Positions 361-7,074 of a DNA stretch of 10,031 nucleotides are shown here, one piece after another. Both the position numbers and the translations under genes were made by a program. Within the stretch, counting starts at the first letter, position 1. Each line of letters begins with the position of its first letter. Source of the DNA: a virus (lineage: Duplodnaviria; Heunggongvirae; Uroviricota; Caudoviricetes); the IMG/VR virus record IMGVR_UViG_2663763232_000016. One strand, written 5' to 3'. Under the pieces are notes generated by a model. The model worked only from the letters and a program-made list of their open reading frames with translations. It made no database searches and had not been told where the DNA came from.

Positions 361-375
361 TCTGTCATACGGTCT

Positions 376-394
376 GCCGGGTAAAATTCCCGGC
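376..394. repeat. Hairpin-forming inverted repeat GCCGGG-TAAAATT-CCCGGC just after the OB-fold gene stop; no adjacent T-tract
   Basis: Perfect 6-bp arms read directly from the sequence, 16 nt downstream of the TAA at 358-360. A terminator role is not supported by a U-run. Confidence 0.3.
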
Positions 395-1653
395 AACTCA
401 TCTACCCCACCTCATGGATGTCCCTGCTATTTGACGATCCAGCTTACATGCTCTTGCTGAAAATATCTTACGGCTCTCTGGGCCAGGTGCCTGACGTGAC
501 AGACGATCCCTCAATAATTTCTTATCTTCTTGCTGAAATATCGCAGAGCCGACAGGCCCAGTAACGTATTTCACCACTTCATCCCGTAGAGCATCACAGC
601 AGGGAAAACTTGCCGCAATAGGGCATTCTACTGTTCGTTTTCTGGTCTATTTAACATAATGGTTCTTATAAGTACTTGACTGGAATGGTCAGGTATTACT
701 TTTCGGAACGTTGACGCGAAGCTGGGTACACAACAGCGATTTCACCAACAGAAGGAAAGCATTCAGGAGGATTCGAGGTGAGTTCTCTTGTTCAAGGATT
801 TTGGATGAGTTTGCCTGGTCACCACACAATTTCAGGTTTCAGACCTTTGAGGCTGCCAGTGTGTCAAACGCCATAAAAGCACTTTTTTCTGTTTACCAGC
901 AGACACAAAGCCACTACACCGACGTTACCACAACGGGCTGAAGGTCTGCCATCACCTGGTGATATTCACGAGCCTGACCGCCACTGTTTCGTACCATTTC
1001 CCAAAACAATGTAAACAGCCAACCCACCAATCCCTTCTACGCTCCACCAGAAGCGCTACAGTGCGTTATCCCCCCAGATGTAAACTGACGTACCGATAAT
1101 CCACGACATCCCACAGCGCGATACAGGAACCACCAGAGGACATCTGTTTTAGTTTTAATGTGTCTTTTTTATTTTTTGTAAAAAGATGGTTCAGAAAGTG
1201 GGTTGTGTTTAGCACCCATTCAATTGGCGGATTCGCCTAGGCCGCGCCATTACTGGCTTCGCTGCATGCACCACACCATAACGCCCATAGGTACAAACTT
1301 GTGATTTGTACGTTTAGTGACCACTTTAGCATGATTAACTACGGATTATAGGCTATTTGAGGTGTATTTAATCTACTTTGTTCGCAGGATAGCCAATGAT
1401 AAAGATCATCCACCAAATTTTCACAGAAAACTAGTATAGGGTTGCCAATCTTCAGCCAGCGCGGAGAATGGTCGGTATTTTCAGATGAAAGCGGGGGAGG
1501 GAGATGATCAATTCTCGGAGCGGATCAGGTGCCTGGACCGCCTCAGGTGTTGCCGTCGATTGTGCCATTGAAGCATGACGCGGACATATCAAACCAGAAG
1601 TTTTCATCGGTGCGTTGGTCGCTTGGATGACTTGGAAAATTCTCACCCGGTGA

Positions 1654-1743
1654 TACCTGCACGATTTTCGTGTACCCACCCCCTCGATTTTCGAGCACCT
1701 ACCTGCACGATTTTCGAGTAGGGGGTAGTCGATTTTCGAGCAC
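1654..1743. repeat. Iteron-like array: four direct repeats of core CGATTTTCG(A/T)G, organised as a tandem ~46-bp duplication, followed by an AT-rich tract
   Basis: Core copies start at 1662, 1685, 1708 and 1730 (spacing 23, 23, 22 bp, about two helical turns). Units 1654-1699 and 1700-1745 are near-identical except the centre (CCCACCCCC versus TAGGGGGTA). AT-rich run AATAATAATAAATAACAAT begins at 1744. Confidence 0.6.
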
Positions 1744-2246
1744 AATAATAATAAATAACAATCTCCATAAAAGAACTGATAAGAAAAGTACCTCCAGGTC
1801 GAGAGCACGGAATGACGGTTGGTCATTCTGTTAGTTTTAATAGTGATGCTTCTGCATCGCTCCGCTCTGCAATGGCTGGTCAGCCACTTCAGATATGTTT
1901 GTGGTAAGAAGCTCACCTTTGCTGACGTGAAACAGCCGCGCCATCTCGTGACCTTCTAACCCTCGTTAACACATCGCTACGCTCTGTGACTCGGGTAACC
2001 CGACAGGCTACGCCAGAGAGCTACGCTCTCACTCTGTGTGGAAGCTGCGAACTTGTTCGCCATATGTGGATCGGAGCACGGCGGAGAGGACTGCTTTGCA
2101 TCTGTCCGGTTCACTCCGGGGCGGCGCGGGTTGTCTAACTGACTTCCTCAGCGCCTCTCTACGGCGTTTAAATGGTGTGGGTAACACGATGGTACTGCTA
2201 TAACGACGAGTCCCCGCAGAACGCGTCACAGAACGATCTAGCACTA

Positions 2247-2275
2247 TTGACAAAGATTTTTTAAACTTGTAATGT
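2247..2275 (+). promoter_or_regulatory. Sigma70-like promoter TTGACA-17-TAATGT
   Basis: -35 TTGACA at 2247-2252, 17-nt spacer, -10 TAATGT at 2270-2275; lies upstream of the cluster beginning at 2492. Confidence 0.45.
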
Positions 2276-2317
2276 TATGGTGATTATTATGCATTATAAA
2301 ATGCTACATGATAATGA

Positions 2318-2346
2318 TTGCTATTTACAAACAAATCTGATACAAT
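2318..2346 (+). promoter_or_regulatory. Sigma70-like promoter TTGCTA-17-TACAAT
   Basis: -35 TTGCTA at 2318-2323, 17-nt spacer, -10 TACAAT at 2341-2346; about 145 nt upstream of the ATG at 2492. Confidence 0.45.
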
Positions 2347-2491
2347 AGATTTTAGTAGGGTAATGATTTACCTACGAATCCTCGAATAATTCTGCCGTCA
2401 TCACGACATTCCTTGTCAACCTCACGGCATTACAAAATGGGTTACAAATAGAACCTCCGCGAATAATTCTTTTAACAGAACGGAGAACCCA

Positions 2492-3025: not shown

Positions 3026-3229
3026 ATGAACATCAAATTTCAACAGCACGTTTATCAGGCTCTACTAGCTGAGGCCAAAAGGCAGGACAAGCCCCTGGCA
3101 CGGCTCTGTAATGAAATCTTGGAGACTGCCGCGAACATTTTCGACAACACACCAGACATCAAACCAGCATTAGCCAGCAAGGCGACACTTTACGGAGAAC
3201 AGAATGAGCAAACAGAACCGGGACAGTAA
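3026..3229 (+). CDS. Small DNA-binding protein, ribbon-helix-helix-like (CopG/Arc/ParG-type fold suspected), 67 aa
   Basis: AGGAGG at 3011-3016, 9 nt before ATG 3026. N-terminal short strand (NIKFQQ) followed by two predicted helices (HVYQALLAEAKRQD / PLARLCNEILETA) matches RHH layout. Not confirmed by search. Confidence 0.7.
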   Translation: MNIKFQQHVYQALLAEAKRQDKPLARLCNEILETAANIFDNTPDIKPALASKATLYGEQNEQTEPGQ

Positions 3230-3950
3230 GGATTTTGTAAAACTTGAATACAGCATTCTCGACCTTACCGAGTACAACGGCCTGACCATTAATGGCAACA
3301 TGAAAATTTTGCTATCTCTGGTTTACAGCTATGACAAAACAGGCAGAACTTATTACGAGTCTGTTGGCATGATTGGTAAACGTTGCGGCTGCAAGCCCGA
3401 AGCCGTTCGTAATTTCAGGAACAAGCTTCGTGAAGCGGGAATGATCACTTTTGAGGAAGAGCAGGGGAGAACACACAAAATTTCTCCGGTCGAACTCGAT
3501 CCATCGTTGATGGTTTTTCTTGACGATCATAATTCCACGCAGGTGAGTAATAGAAAAGTGGAAACCGAGGAGAGCGGTAAGAATGAGCAGAAACGTGATG
3601 TGGAATCTTTCGTGGTGGAACCTGCCGCGCCTGTTGCTGGAAAACCAGACGGCCTACCTGTTGTGGATATTCCTGTCGATGCTGATGTACCTGCCAATGA
3701 TGATGCGGTGAACGCTTCTGATAGGTATACCGATGAACAATTAGGCACCAAGCTGAGGCGATGGCGCAATTGGGGACTGGATGAAGAAGCAAAAGCGTTT
3801 TGTCTCTCTCATGGTATCAGCAGCGATGAGGACAGCATGAATCTGTTTATTCAAAATTATCATGTACCCGCACCGGAGTCAGTAGAACAACAGGTTAACG
3901 CCCCAGCAGATGAGCTGCCGCTTGATTATGATGACTCGATCCCTTTCTGA
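3204..3950 (+). CDS. Protein with N-terminal winged-helix-like DNA-binding domain (resembling replisome-organizer / replication-initiator N-domains) and an acidic, low-complexity C-terminal half, 248 aa
   Basis: GGAGA at 3194-3198, 5 nt before ATG 3204; the start overlaps the 3-prime end of the RHH gene by 26 nt. Segment KILLSLVYSYDKTGRTYYESVGMIGKRCGCKPEAVRNFRNKLREAGMITFEE looks like helix-turn-wing. C-terminal half is rich in D/E/P. Confidence 0.8.
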   Translation: MSKQNRDSKDFVKLEYSILDLTEYNGLTINGNMKILLSLVYSYDKTGRTYYESVGMIGKRCGCKPEAVRNFRNKLREAGMITFEEEQGRTHKISPVELDPSLMVFLDDHNSTQVSNRKVETEESGKNEQKRDVESFVVEPAAPVAGKPDGLPVVDIPVDADVPANDDAVNASDRYTDEQLGTKLRRWRNWGLDEEAKAFCLSHGISSDEDSMNLFIQNYHVPAPESVEQQVNAPADELPLDYDDSIPF

Positions 3951-4600: not shown

Positions 4601-4933
4601 ATGAATAACATTGAAGCAATCCGCGCCAGTATCCGGGAAGCAATGACCGCAGGAACAGACGAACCGGAAGATCTGAACAAATCCGCTGAAGAAGCATTGG
4701 CGGAGGCGGTGCAGAGTTACCTGTCCGCTTCGACTGCAACAGCCAGCGAGCCAGCCCCAAAAAGTGGTAAAACCATCAAGGAAAAAGGGATCGCTCTGTG
4801 CCACCAAGCCCAAGGTTATAGCGCTAATCTGCGTCCGGTAAGTCTCATGATGAAGGCAAGTCTTGATGAGCTAACACCTGAACAACGCGCCGCGCTTGAG
4901 CGTCTGGGTTACGATATCAATCAGGGGGTGTGA
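4601..4933 (+). CDS. Hypothetical protein, about 110 aa from ATG 4601; the in-frame TTG at 4505 would add 32 hydrophobic residues
   Basis: AGGAAA at 4585-4590 lies 10 nt before ATG 4601. The TGA stop at 4931-4933 overlaps the ATG of the next gene (TGATG). Alternative longer ORF from TTG 4505 as given in the ORF track. Confidence 0.6.
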   Translation: MNNIEAIRASIREAMTAGTDEPEDLNKSAEEALAEAVQSYLSASTATASEPAPKSGKTIKEKGIALCHQAQGYSANLRPVSLMMKASLDELTPEQRAALERLGYDINQGV

Positions 4934-7074
4934 TGTCTGGCACAAATAAGATTGTTACCAGCACCGTTAATGAAATCTCGTGGATCACAGACGATGCCTC
5001 ATATCAAAAAGCCAAAAAGAAGATTATCTCGCTTAAGGCTGCTCATGAGAAACCAGCTAAAGCGCTTGAGAAGGCCCAGAAGCGGACCGTCCAGAGTGAA
5101 GGCAAAGCAGCACTAGCCGCAGCGAAAGCCCAGACAGCGAAGCTACGCCAGGCTGAACAATTGTCAAAACAGCAACAGAAACAAGCTCAGATACAAGCCA
5201 AAATGGAACGGGATGCAGTCTCCCACGCTAATAAAATGACCTCATTACAGGCGCGTCAGTTATCCCAGCAGGAACAGGCCGCACGGCAGAATGCCAGACT
5301 AGCAGCGATATCTGACAAGGTGAGACAGGCGAGTCGCTCCCGTGCAATGACCTACAATCCCAACATGCCTGGAGTTCACTCCGATCCATCTCTGGTGGCA
5401 CGTCAAAATGCAGCGATGAACCGTGGTCACGGCGCTGTTGCTGCTGACATCGCAGCCACCAAAAAGGCGATGGCCTTGGAGGAGAAGCGTCAGCGTGAGA
5501 AAGAGGCAGGCCTTAAGCGCGAGGTGACTTATTACAACAGTTTGCGCCGTAGCGCTCTGACTCTGGCAAACGTGAACGGCGCTGACGTTGCAACCCGGTA
5601 CAAAGCCATCAGTGCAGCAAAAGAGGCACTTAAAGCCCAGAAAGAAGAGCGCTATACGGTTGAAGAGACCCGCTTCGAAATGGCTCGTATCACCACCGAA
5701 TTACGCAAGCAGGCTCGTCTGCAACAGCGTATGACCCGTGAGCAGAAAGCCGCAGGTGTTCGTGCTGGTCGTGTACGCACAGAAAGCCGTGGTGGTAGAG
5801 CTGGTCTTGCAGCTGCTGGTGTTATTGGTGGTGCGTCGTTAGTGGGTAGTATGGGCGTTTCTCGTGTCGGTCAGACCCTCCAGGGAAGCCTTGAGCGCTC
5901 TCGCGATGTGAAAAAACTCCAGCAGTACGGGATCAGCAACCTTGAGTTCGCTGCACTTCAGGATCTCTCGATGAGCCGTGTTGGTTACTCACTGAGTGCT
6001 GACAAGCTGGCTGACCTCAACAAGGACACAACCGAAAAGGCCGGGGAATTGTTAAACACCGGCTCTTTCAAACGTAACAAGAAAACTGGACAGGTGAATT
6101 TCAGCGGCGGTGGCGAGTTCGCAGATATCATCAACAATGTGCTGACCTCCACCAACGGTAACCAGAAGGTAGCACAGAAGGTGATCGGAGAACTGCAAAA
6201 GCTGGATTTTCCGACCTTCATCACTTACCTGAAACAGTTGCAGAAAACTTTCAAATGGACGGACAACCAGACCCGGCACCTGGCTGAGGCTGTGAATGAT
6301 GGTTCGGTCTTCCTCGAAGTGTTCAATGATGAGGGGCAGGGACTTATCCAGCGTATGCATCAACTCTCTTCTGAAGGATGGACCCTATCTGATGCGCAGC
6401 AAGCCAACCTCGATAAACTGGCGGCGTTAGGTGCTGAGTACAACCGAGTGCAAACCAGCCTTGCAGATCATTTCTCAGCCTCGTTTGTTGAAGGCCTGGG
6501 GCAGTACGCTGCCAATACTGAAACTCTACGTCAGAAGATGACTGGACTGATCCCAATTTCCGATGCCCTCGGCGTTGCCCTTGGTGAGCTAACCACCAAC
6601 ATTCTCTCCTTCTCTGGTCGAGTCGGTGAAGAACTTAAGAAAGGCGCGACATTGCCGGATGCGGTGTATGCGAGCGTGGTAGATGAATCTGCAAACGGTG
6701 CTGCCGATTGGATTAAGGAAAAGACAGGCTTTGATCCACGTAGCATCGGTCAGACGCTTAAGCAGATTTACCCGTGGCTGGATAGTTCAGCACCGAGCAA
6801 TATTGGCTCAGGCACGGCGTATAACGATCCAGCGCTAGCGTTGAATGTTCCTAGCCTGAACTATCTGACACCCCAGCAACCGACGTTTACGGTTCCGACA
6901 ATTGACAGCATGACGCTGCGACAGCCGATTCCTGTCAGTGTTACCGGGCAAGCGAACATTAATCAGCAGATGGATGTGTTTGTCCATGACGATAAGATCG
7001 CAGGGCTGGTTGATACCAAGATAAGGGAGAACAACCACGCGCAGAATAACCTCATCCTTGGGATTGCAGACTAA
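4933..7074 (+). CDS. Large protein (about 713 aa) with N-terminal A/K/Q-rich coiled-coil region, central glycine-zipper hydrophobic segment and a C-terminal domain of about 400 aa; function unknown (virion structural, scaffold-like or tape-measure-like are possibilities)
   Basis: ATG 4933 coupled to the upstream stop (TGATG) with AGGGGG at 4923-4928; a GTG at 4930 is the ORF-track start. TAA at 7072-7074. Hydrophobic segment GRAGLAAAGVIGGASLVGSMGV. No P-loop or catalytic motif recognised. Confidence 0.9.
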   Translation: MSGTNKIVTSTVNEISWITDDASYQKAKKKIISLKAAHEKPAKALEKAQKRTVQSEGKAALAAAKAQTAKLRQAEQLSKQQQKQAQIQAKMERDAVSHANKMTSLQARQLSQQEQAARQNARLAAISDKVRQASRSRAMTYNPNMPGVHSDPSLVARQNAAMNRGHGAVAADIAATKKAMALEEKRQREKEAGLKREVTYYNSLRRSALTLANVNGADVATRYKAISAAKEALKAQKEERYTVEETRFEMARITTELRKQARLQQRMTREQKAAGVRAGRVRTESRGGRAGLAAAGVIGGASLVGSMGVSRVGQTLQGSLERSRDVKKLQQYGISNLEFAALQDLSMSRVGYSLSADKLADLNKDTTEKAGELLNTGSFKRNKKTGQVNFSGGGEFADIINNVLTSTNGNQKVAQKVIGELQKLDFPTFITYLKQLQKTFKWTDNQTRHLAEAVNDGSVFLEVFNDEGQGLIQRMHQLSSEGWTLSDAQQANLDKLAALGAEYNRVQTSLADHFSASFVEGLGQYAANTETLRQKMTGLIPISDALGVALGELTTNILSFSGRVGEELKKGATLPDAVYASVVDESANGAADWIKEKTGFDPRSIGQTLKQIYPWLDSSAPSNIGSGTAYNDPALALNVPSLNYLTPQQPTFTVPTIDSMTLRQPIPVSVTGQANINQQMDVFVHDDKIAGLVDTKIRENNHAQNNLILGIAD

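Follow-up and report, generated by a model that had tools for sequence, protein, structure and literature searches.

A probable replication-control region combining an iteron origin with a conserved structured module in the non-coding gap of a phage-satellite-like island

The DNA considered here is a viral record of 10,031 nucleotides (IMG/VR record IMGVR_UViG_2663763232_000016, Caudoviricetes; hereafter, the window), and its host element is, as far as its anatomy indicates, a small integrative, phage-satellite-like island. Positions 361-2491 carry no annotated coding sequence in an identical Escherichia coli record. This gap is probably a non-coding replication-control region of the island, holding an iteron origin and a structured module of about 380 nt, termed block B, which has counterparts in phages (Table 1). 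Within this region, the iterons and the adjoining AT-rich DNA (1654-1800) are well supported, on comparative grounds, as the predicted origin of the island. The role of block B is proposed more tentatively: that it acts in cis as an accessory of the origin is the explanation we favour, at slightly under even probability.

Four copies of the iteron core CGATTTTCGWG are present where 0.43 would be expected; the core occurs at this site only in the window, and none of 200 shuffled sequences reached four copies. The repeats are in helical phase (22-23 bp each) and are followed by an AT-rich stretch that presumably serves as the DNA-unwinding element; the equivalent stretch in related islands and in phages contains repeated AAGATC (Dam) sites. 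The gene of the putative initiator (3204-3950, 248 aa) is located 1.5 kb downstream of the origin, and its product matches HTH_36 with an E-value of 4.6e-4, which is below the Pfam cut-off, as well as PHROG families described as DnaD-like helicase loader, replication initiation O-like, and replication initiation protein. Relatives of the island were collected as about 50 loci from E. coli genomes, from one genome per species, from IMG/VR, and from metagenomes; their hosts are E. coli, Citrobacter, Pseudocitrobacter, Enterobacter, Klebsiella, Kluyvera, Dryocola, and Rahnella, and all of them have an approximately 2-kb gap, poor in open reading frames (ORFs), upstream of the homolog of the 148-aa gene that follows the gap in the window. 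Eight iteron families were distinguished across these loci, each paired one-to-one with one initiator N-terminus. For example, CGATTTTCGWG is found with an initiator beginning MSKQNRDSKDF..., GTCATCGGTAA with ME(I/N)IMN(K/S)R(A/V)SQNKPELW..., GCAAAGTTTGT with ...KTEKY..KRL.HSTHIVRQDTGEEI, and CCACTGAAGAA with ...KKTDTYDV.YS.IRRITKLRT. Because the iteron type co-varies with the initiator N-terminus, the iterons are predicted to be binding sites of the island's own HTH_36/O-like initiator, and the origin appears to be a swappable module whose iterons and initiator are exchanged together between islands. An earlier examination of the window, made without database searches (the sequence-only reading), had expected a long non-coding block of this kind to host an origin, and this co-variation bears the expectation out.

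The layout of the lambda and P1 origins is well established, and the island origin belongs to the same type. As in ori-lambda with its O protein, P1 oriR, F oriS, and pSC101, four tandem initiator repeats in helical phase are combined with an AT-rich stretch and a palindrome; the GATC sites in the AT-rich stretch of the island's relatives recall P1 oriR and oriC, and the island initiator resembles lambda O in being an O-like winged-helix-turn-helix protein whose specificity co-varies with the repeats. Unlike that of lambda, however, the island origin is located upstream of the initiator gene rather than inside it. It further differs from the lambda and plasmid iteron origins in that no clear DnaA box was found and that a structured module is joined to the unwinding element. 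The best candidates found in a search for DnaA boxes have 7/9 matches, namely TCATCCACC in block C and TGTGGATCG-type motifs in block B. The promoter-like site that points into the iterons (1442-1469) is kept in the window and in the related loci L002, L006, L008, L009, L018, and L020, and it could, by analogy with pR for ori-lambda, provide transcriptional activation of the origin. Within 1442-1578, this site is followed by a strong Shine-Dalgarno-like run, GGGGGAGGGAG, and two overlapping mini-ORFs (1484-1573, 29 aa; 1504-1578, 24 aa) are situated upstream of the iterons.

Rightward of the unwinding element stand a palindrome, H0, and then block B, and comparison indicates that the AT-rich DNA, H0, and block B stay constant across the islands. 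The arms of H0 change jointly in relatives (TTGAAC/GTTCAA, GTGAAC/GTTCAC); the palindrome scores as terminator-like on the plus strand in the window and in L003, and it could be an operator. In alignments of block B, the motifs CUCUGUGUGGAAG, AAUGUGRAUCGAG, GGAG...CUCC, and GGGGCGGCG are invariant, and the hairpins between them vary in sequence from island to island while their pairing is kept and their positions are fixed. The P2 position, just 5′ of the first motif, is occupied by about 20 distinct stems (e.g., GAGAGC/GCUCUC, GUGAACGG/CCGUUUAC, and GUAGGCAGGC/GCCUGUUUAC), and the H1 position, between two motifs, by about 10, many of them with GNRA or CUUG loops (GCGAA-CUUG-UUCGC, GCC-GCGA-GGC, GGGC-UACA-GCCC, and GGAAGC-UCC-GCUUCC, for instance). 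In some islands, whole additional hairpins are inserted. A covariance model (CM R1) was built from 11 short-form sequences with a hand-drawn structure and then used to align 19 related sequences; in this alignment, 93.7% of the cells are paired and seven pairs change on both sides, a number reached in none of 500 shuffles (average, 2.7), and controls in which the pairing partners are slid are 36-49% paired. Changes on one side only yield G.U pairs on the plus strand and would be C.A mismatches on the other strand. RNAalifold additionally proposed a long-range helix between UCGCUCCG (1857-1864) and CGGGGCGG (2117-2124), including U.G pairs; it found no consensus in plain MAFFT alignments, since the hairpins do not line up there. 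By these comparisons, block B is a conserved, strand-specific structured module, predicted to fold on the plus strand. The sequence-only reading had proposed a covariance-model scan and an alignment with relatives: the alignment revealed conserved sub-blocks, among them the folded block B, and the scan with Rfam 15 gave no match at E ≤1 within 361-2491 and none in the homologous leaders of the phages described below.

A megablast search of the whole window against phages found no match, and a sensitive BLAST search of phage genomes with block B detected only 34 nt (91% identity), in roughly 145-kb phages of Klebsiella, Raoultella, and Escherichia. The locus thus reached in phage BIS47 encodes a 92-aa "replication initiation protein," accompanied by two TGCAAATTTTGC repeats and an AT-rich stretch with AAGATC repeats; further to the right are the motifs UGUGUGGAAG, a GCGAACUUGUUCGC hairpin, UAUGUGAUGG, and GGGGGCGGCGCG, up to the start of the next gene. 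The same arrangement is present in phages of two Vequintavirinae genera, Mydovirus and Seunavirus (BIS47, Mydo, GAP31, 4MG, and PVP-SE1), and an nhmmer profile of the island block B detects the phage regions with E-values of 2e-6 to 8e-10. The 92-aa phage protein shares homology with the N-terminal domain of the initiators in the islands, and the initiator of this type in Proteus phage Mydo is annotated PF13730 (HTH_36), the family matched by the initiator in the window. About 63 nt of the leader of Salmonella phage PVP-SE1 (AAUGUGAACGGAGCCGAUUGGCGACAGGGGCAAACUUGUUUACCCGAUCUACUCCGGGGCGGCG; L078, about 1080-1150) are only one base off the block B core of the Citrobacter amalonaticus island L008 (about 5575-5640), and the flanks of this near-identical segment differ, which suggests a recent exchange between phage and island. 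All of the phages, and none of the islands, have a promoter, TTGATY-N16-TATAGT, about 10 nt upstream of the first helix; in the islands, its position is occupied by H0. Block B is therefore best described, from these correspondences, as apparently derived from a Vequintavirinae unit composed of a small HTH_36 initiator gene, iterons, GATC/AT-rich DNA, a sigma-70 promoter, and a structured G-rich leader. For the related phage rV5, the genome paper reports that the origin could not be defined and that skew analysis failed (PMC3606486). It is possible, though we would not call it probable, that block B and the corresponding phage elements represent an undescribed structured RNA or single-stranded DNA motif belonging to the origin and early leader of Vequintavirinae, and that this motif was captured by a hitherto unclassified family of capsid-encoding islands in Enterobacteriaceae, the constitutive phage promoter giving way to an operator-like palindrome.

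In the favoured proposal, block B would serve replication in cis. The initiator would open the AT-rich DNA, and the plus strand to the right of it would become the displaced strand, that is, the lagging-strand template of a rightward fork. The hairpins of block B and its invariant single-stranded motifs (CUCUGUGUGGAAG, AAUGUGGA, and GGGGCGGCG) might then be a helicase- or primase-loading site, or a priming site, for the replisome; alternatively, a G-rich transcript of block B might form a priming R-loop. The replisome employed would possibly be that of the helper phage. A role in cis is favoured because iterons and initiators swap freely while the AT-rich DNA, H0, and block B stay together, and because block B has been kept despite the loss of the promoter, the loss of the downstream gene, and a location upstream of the operon promoter.

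Origins in which a priming element accompanies the initiation site are well known, as in ColE1 (RNA II and a primosome assembly site), pAMbeta1 (ori and ssiA), and T4 oriF and oriG (a promoter with an unwinding element). The resemblance drawn to them here is one of analogy. The promoter built into the Vequintavirinae phage locus would lead into a structured G-rich transcript, as in these three systems; moreover, with hairpins on the strand displaced by rightward synthesis, the layout matches one in which a rep gene, its Rep sites, and AT-rich DNA are followed after 100-200 nt by a priming site, a distance between origin and priming site known from ColE1 and pAMbeta1. On the other hand, no sequence similarity to ColE1, pAMbeta1, or T4 is seen, the islands lack the promoter, and, in contrast to ColE1, an initiator protein is present in the island and the phage.

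Several observations weigh against a DNA-level priming role or against the structural case itself. The phage element resembles an ordinary transcribed 5′ leader that ends at the next ribosome-binding site, which favours a role as RNA over a role as DNA, and a length of 380 nt is large for a priming site. The count of seven doubly changed pairs leans towards structure, as the structure came from the same sequences and the alignment of 19 was fitted by the model. For the cores of blocks A and B, thermodynamic stability does not stand out on either strand (z -0.4 to -0.7); the interval 1800-2250 does fold better than its shuffles (z -2.7 and -3.0), in a manner that does not discriminate the strand. 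Finally, the phage origin is itself a prediction from the arrangement of its locus.

A possible but clearly less probable explanation is that block B acts as a regulatory RNA. The phage copy would then be a structured 5′ leader of the first early gene, controlling that gene in the manner of a riboswitch or by binding a protein, and the islands would use their copy to sense a factor of the helper phage or the cell, or as a decoy for it. The island RNA would start at a regulated promoter that H0 overlaps, and its effect would be either to activate the island or to hinder the helper. The position of the phage promoter just before the first helix fits this explanation, as does the fact that the phage element extends to the ribosome-binding site and ATG of the next gene; in PVP-SE1, CUCCG...CGGAGG can, as read from the sequence, mask the Shine-Dalgarno, and an upstream CGGAG can compete. 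The GNRA and CUUG loops and the G.U pairs on the sense strand also fit, and the combination of invariant junctions with variable stems is typical of riboswitch-like RNAs. In addition, the islands have no recognisable repressor; none was found among the window proteins by annotation or Pfam. However, the phage promoter is absent from the islands and no sigma-70 site scores upstream of block B, immediately before which H0 has a plus-strand terminator score. Island block B also stands upstream of the operon promoter, and hence outside its transcript, with no start codon after it; the Shine-Dalgarno-masking pairing is absent in BIS47, GAP31, and Mydo; and no Rfam family matches.

Comparison with known leaders is likewise partial. 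A non-coding, repeat-containing region beside an early operon recalls the immunity leader of P4 (CI RNA, seqA/seqB/seqC) and lambda nut, where RNA structure governs the early operon of a satellite or phage, and the repeated CGCTCT of block B, which is followed by hairpins with GNRA-like loops, resembles the boxA of nut (CGCTCTTA). However, no similarity to the P4 leader exists, and block B is upstream of the operon promoter. A lambda nut site was rejected, as only CGCTCTG/CGCTCTC, a partial boxA, is present and the islands have no upstream promoter; no N-like arginine-rich N-terminus was seen among the proteins of the window ORFs. Readings of the TGTGG motifs as CRP half-site, CsrA sponge, F-type nic site, or DnaA box gave partial matches only, and nothing is claimed from them.

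The cis-acting proposal may also be set against a packaging function. Genes for a capsid protein and a decoration-like protein are present in the island, and no terminase or portal was seen among the window proteins in Pfam and PHROG scans or annotation, so the island must carry a packaging site somewhere; the gap is its largest non-coding block. That blocks A or C (Table 1), or the 3′ part of block B, might be a pac or cos signal for the terminase of a helper is nevertheless highly improbable. GGGGCGGCG looks like the first 8 nt of the cohesive end of lambda, and the right end of lambda is matched at 12/13 nt by CCGACAGGCTACG (1999-2011); however, 110 bp separate one string from the other, and the cohesive end is not present over its full 12 nt. 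Furthermore, the phage homolog of block B adjoins the initiator gene and iterons rather than terminase genes, no match to either block A or block C was found in phages, and compensatory changes in stems would not be expected of a site that a terminase recognises as double-stranded DNA. A lambda-type cos was also rejected as such, since only GGGCGGCG (8/12) is present and the phage homolog is at the initiator and iterons. Of the usual occupants that the sequence-only reading had listed for this block, an origin is well supported, and a folded element is present besides; the attachment site lies elsewhere, being marked by a thiamine pyrophosphate (TPP) riboswitch duplicated at the two ends of the island, and a search for a packaging site in the gap identified none.

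The gap as a whole is non-coding. The sequence-only reading had described 361-2246 as lacking convincing coding capacity; this holds, with the correction that the block runs about 245 nt further at its right border, to 2491. Over three conserved parts of the gap, the variable alignment columns show no third-position bias: the counts for the three codon positions are 21/15/16 at 693-880, 42/33/35 at 955-1150, and 43/44/41 at 2032-2246, compared with 53/32/117 in the neighbouring 148-aa gene, which served as a control. The two minus-strand ORFs that might have encoded conserved proteins turn out to be non-genes, with no Pfam or PHROG match for either: ORF 2029-2253 is shortened to ≤40 codons in 8 of 15 relatives, and ORF 1452-1916, which overlaps the iterons and has a junk-like composition, is open in near-identical copies only. 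On the plus strand, ORF 711-941 was rejected for its stop codons in L002, L006, L008, and L014, and ORF 1819-1959 in the coding comparison with relatives; minus-strand ORF 401-646 is without independent support. A minus-strand frame across 940-1145, considered as a small membrane protein on inspection of L002, differs from island to island, and "conserved peptides" in this interval occur in all three frames, on which basis coding was rejected.

A non-coding gap of this kind could also be functionless mosaic debris outside the origin, made of decayed genes and recombination scars that were spread by recent exchange. We regard this as very unlikely. The gap is indeed strongly mosaic, with modules separated by sharp breaks in identity; a real 120-aa gene is present in some relatives where the window has none, and 419-477 resembles a displaced promoter region of a 69-aa gene. 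However, blocks A and B are kept in islands whose proteins are only about 31% identical, the stems covary, no block shows a frame or protein match, and the phage copy is conserved over several Vequintavirinae genera. The 120-aa protein (MEFVQGKDSFNEMATG...GWIFGGK) is conserved and encoded on the minus strand in the gap of several relatives (L003, 6713-7096; L005, 8415-8786; L007, 4782-5153; L013, 4909-5286; L015, 4793-5197), at the place where the window has the iteron segment; the gap can therefore hold cargo, though it does not in this window.

Table 1. Features of the gap and their positions in the window
Feature	Positions	Strand	Description
Left border segment	361-648		Hairpin, direct repeat, stretch found upstream of a 69-aa gene in relatives
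Conserved non-coding block	649-954		84-95% identity in otherwise diverged islands
Block A	955-1150		Most widely conserved non-coding block of the gap
Block C	1195-1450		In a subset of islands; contains inverted repeat 1291-1311
Promoter-like site	1442-1469	+	TTGCCA-N16-GAGAAT; 9/12 matches; points into iterons
Four iterons	1654-1743		Core CGATTTTCGWG; spacing 23/23/22 bp
AT-rich stretch (presumed DNA-unwinding element)	1744-1800		1744-1790, 19% GC
Palindrome H0	1807-1831	+	GGAATGAC-N5-GTCATTC
Block B, structured module (~380 nt)	1842-2217	+	First unit 1842-1965
Block B core, 5′ end	1974-1981		TCGCTACG
Block B hairpin	1991-2003
P2 stem	2016-2030		GAGAGC/GCTCTC
M1 motif	2031-2044		ACTCTGTGTGGAAG
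H1 stem	2047-2060		GCGAA-CUUG-UUCGC
M2 motif	2062-2076		ATATGTGGATCGGAG
H3 stems	2083-2117		GGAG/CTCC, GGAC/GTCC
G-rich motif	2118-2130		GGGGCGGCGCGGG
3′ domain of block B			GCGGG 2126-2130 paired with CCCGC 2213-2217
Rightward operon promoter, sigma-70-type	2247-2275	+	TTGACA 2247-2252, 17-nt spacer, TAATGT 2270-2275
Leader of 148-aa gene	2276-2491	+	Second promoter-like site, direct repeat, hairpins

The remaining modules of the gap are conserved to different extents. Block A is as widespread as block B: an nhmmer profile finds it in essentially all islands, always oriented alike and located 1.1-1.7 kb before the 148-aa gene, on its upstream side, whereas the same profile found no match in phages. 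Its reading frame is disrupted differently in different islands, and it contains a variable hairpin, GCGCTACAGTGC (1053-1064), at which some relatives have three tidy hairpins inserted. The idea that block A on the minus strand is an inverted paralog of block B on the plus strand was unsupported: minus-strand nhmmer comparison of blocks A and B gave no match at E ≤0.01, with only scattered ones up to E 50, and CM R1 gave none. In block C, GATCATCCACCAAATTTT (about 1408-1425) is invariant in all nine sequences; it holds the DnaA-box-like TCATCCACC beside a GATC. Blocks A and C appear, from this conservation, to be further cis elements. The segment 419-1674 is 92% identical to L009, and 419-477 is found in relatives directly upstream of a minus-strand gene of 69 aa; a hairpin, GCCGGG-N7-CCCGGC (375-393), lies 3′ of the gene that precedes the gap. 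At the right end, TTGACAA is present in all loci with TAAKGT/TAAAGT 17 nt downstream, although the window's own -10 falls under the promoter-scan threshold; short-form islands have two copies of the TTGACAA promoter. A second promoter-like site, which has a TG extension, is found in the leader of the 148-aa gene (2318-2346), together with a direct repeat, TCCKCGAATAATTCT, at 2379-2393 and 2456-2470, and conserved hairpins at 2355-2377 and 2392-2429.

The small repeats to which the sequence-only reading had drawn attention fared unequally. The GC-rich region with reiterated motifs was confirmed, with a GC content of 0.56-0.575 over 1901-2200, and CTACGCTC occurs exactly at 1977, 2021, and 1037 and with one mismatch at 1860, always on the plus strand and with no further exact copy in the window. 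The iterons and this GC-rich motif region are non-random and conserved. The direct repeat placed at 454 and 529 exists, except that the first CTTGCTGAAAATATC copy begins at 453; as the 11-nt string TCTTGCTGAAA, it is exact at 452-462 and 528-538, which is at chance level, given 29 comparable repeat families in 2.2 kb. The inverted repeat GTACAAA-N7-TTTGTAC is found at 1291-1311 as reported, and it is perfect in this window only. Its left arm reads GTACAGA, AGACAGT, or AGAAAGT in relatives, uncompensated by the other arm, and it is therefore not selected as a hairpin. The repeats at 453/529 and at 1291 are thus real; by comparison with relatives they are evidently not conserved as structures and are not the functional features.

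From position 54 to its end, the window matches two E. coli chromosomes at 100%; positions 1-53, which lie within the gene of an OB-fold protein, are unmatched in both of these otherwise identical chromosomes, and a recombination breakpoint is probably located in this gene. In strain TC24, the window lies inside an insertion of about 13.3 kb between rcnR and thiM, flanked by two annotated copies of the thiM TPP riboswitch; the island spans 8894-22165 of locus L001, in which the window corresponds to 11948-21978. The left part of the island encodes a 451-aa tyrosine integrase and a few small ORFs, followed by the 250-aa OB-fold protein, whose gene stops at window position 360. To the right of the gap, genes for proteins of 148, 67, 248, 173, about 110, and 714 aa follow in this order, and after them come a decoration-like protein (weak HDPD match) and a major capsid protein of 338 aa; this last protein shares 24% identity with the capsid proteins of Klebsiella phages of 142-150 kb and of Pseudomonas phages of the Otagovirus type. 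The 714-aa protein (4930-7074), the product of the largest island gene, is unexplained: it has no Pfam or PDB sequence match, its sole matches are weak ones to tape-measure PHROGs, and it is labelled "chemotaxis protein" in some genomes; for it and for the 148-aa protein, sequence searches of the PDB gave nothing informative. The window was found to contain neither tRNA nor tmRNA genes, and the relatives L002-L005 are islands seated at tRNA-Gly or tRNA-Thr. The cargo slot left of the gap varies among relatives, with an ATP-dependent nuclease, an ImmA/IrrE peptidase, and a DUF4145 protein (L004, 3997-7418; L005, 5262-7423; L003, 4017-4652), and in L004 and L005 a minus-strand gene for a 184-aa tyrosine-recombinase-like protein directly abuts the gap. 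The sole match of the gap in plasmid searches is an 84% match of 536-665 to an unannotated spot in a 16.5-kb Enterobacter asburiae "plasmid" (L024, 11480-11609; NZ_CP011867.1), a record that looks like prophage tail genes fused to chromosomal ABC-transporter genes and is probably an assembly artefact.

This anatomy resembles that of phage-inducible chromosomal islands (PICI), capsid-forming PICI (cfPICI), P4-like satellites, PICI-like elements (PLE), and phage-inducible chromosomal minimalist islands (PICMI), in that an island of about 13 kb combines a tyrosine integrase for a specific site with its own initiator and origin, and has capsid-related genes as well as a slot of variable cargo that includes defence-like genes. 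However, the present islands differ from the known satellites in encoding a capsid and a decoration-like protein without terminase or portal, in having no alpA or pri-rep, and in having the 714-aa protein, which is of no known family; their links to the Vequintavirinae are the capsid protein and the shared origin module. The island family is outside all described satellite families, and literature searches found no description of it or of the phage origin.

The origin of the island is of a familiar type; what is new is the structured module attached to it and the link that it provides to the undefined origins of rV5-like phages. The phage locus supplies a candidate origin for this group, composed of a small HTH_36 initiator, iterons, GATC/AT-rich DNA, a promoter, and a structured leader. 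An uncharacterised family of islands is thereby tied to a group of helper phages by non-coding DNA and not by proteins, and UGUGUGGAAG, AAUGUGRA, and GGGGCGGCG, together with the covarying hairpins, constitute a candidate new RNA family, which could be included in covariance-model libraries and help to find such islands. If the motif was indeed captured from the phages, the islands could plug into, or sense, the replication or early-expression machinery of their helper, and they would be satellites of large virulent phages, recognisable by a non-coding signature.

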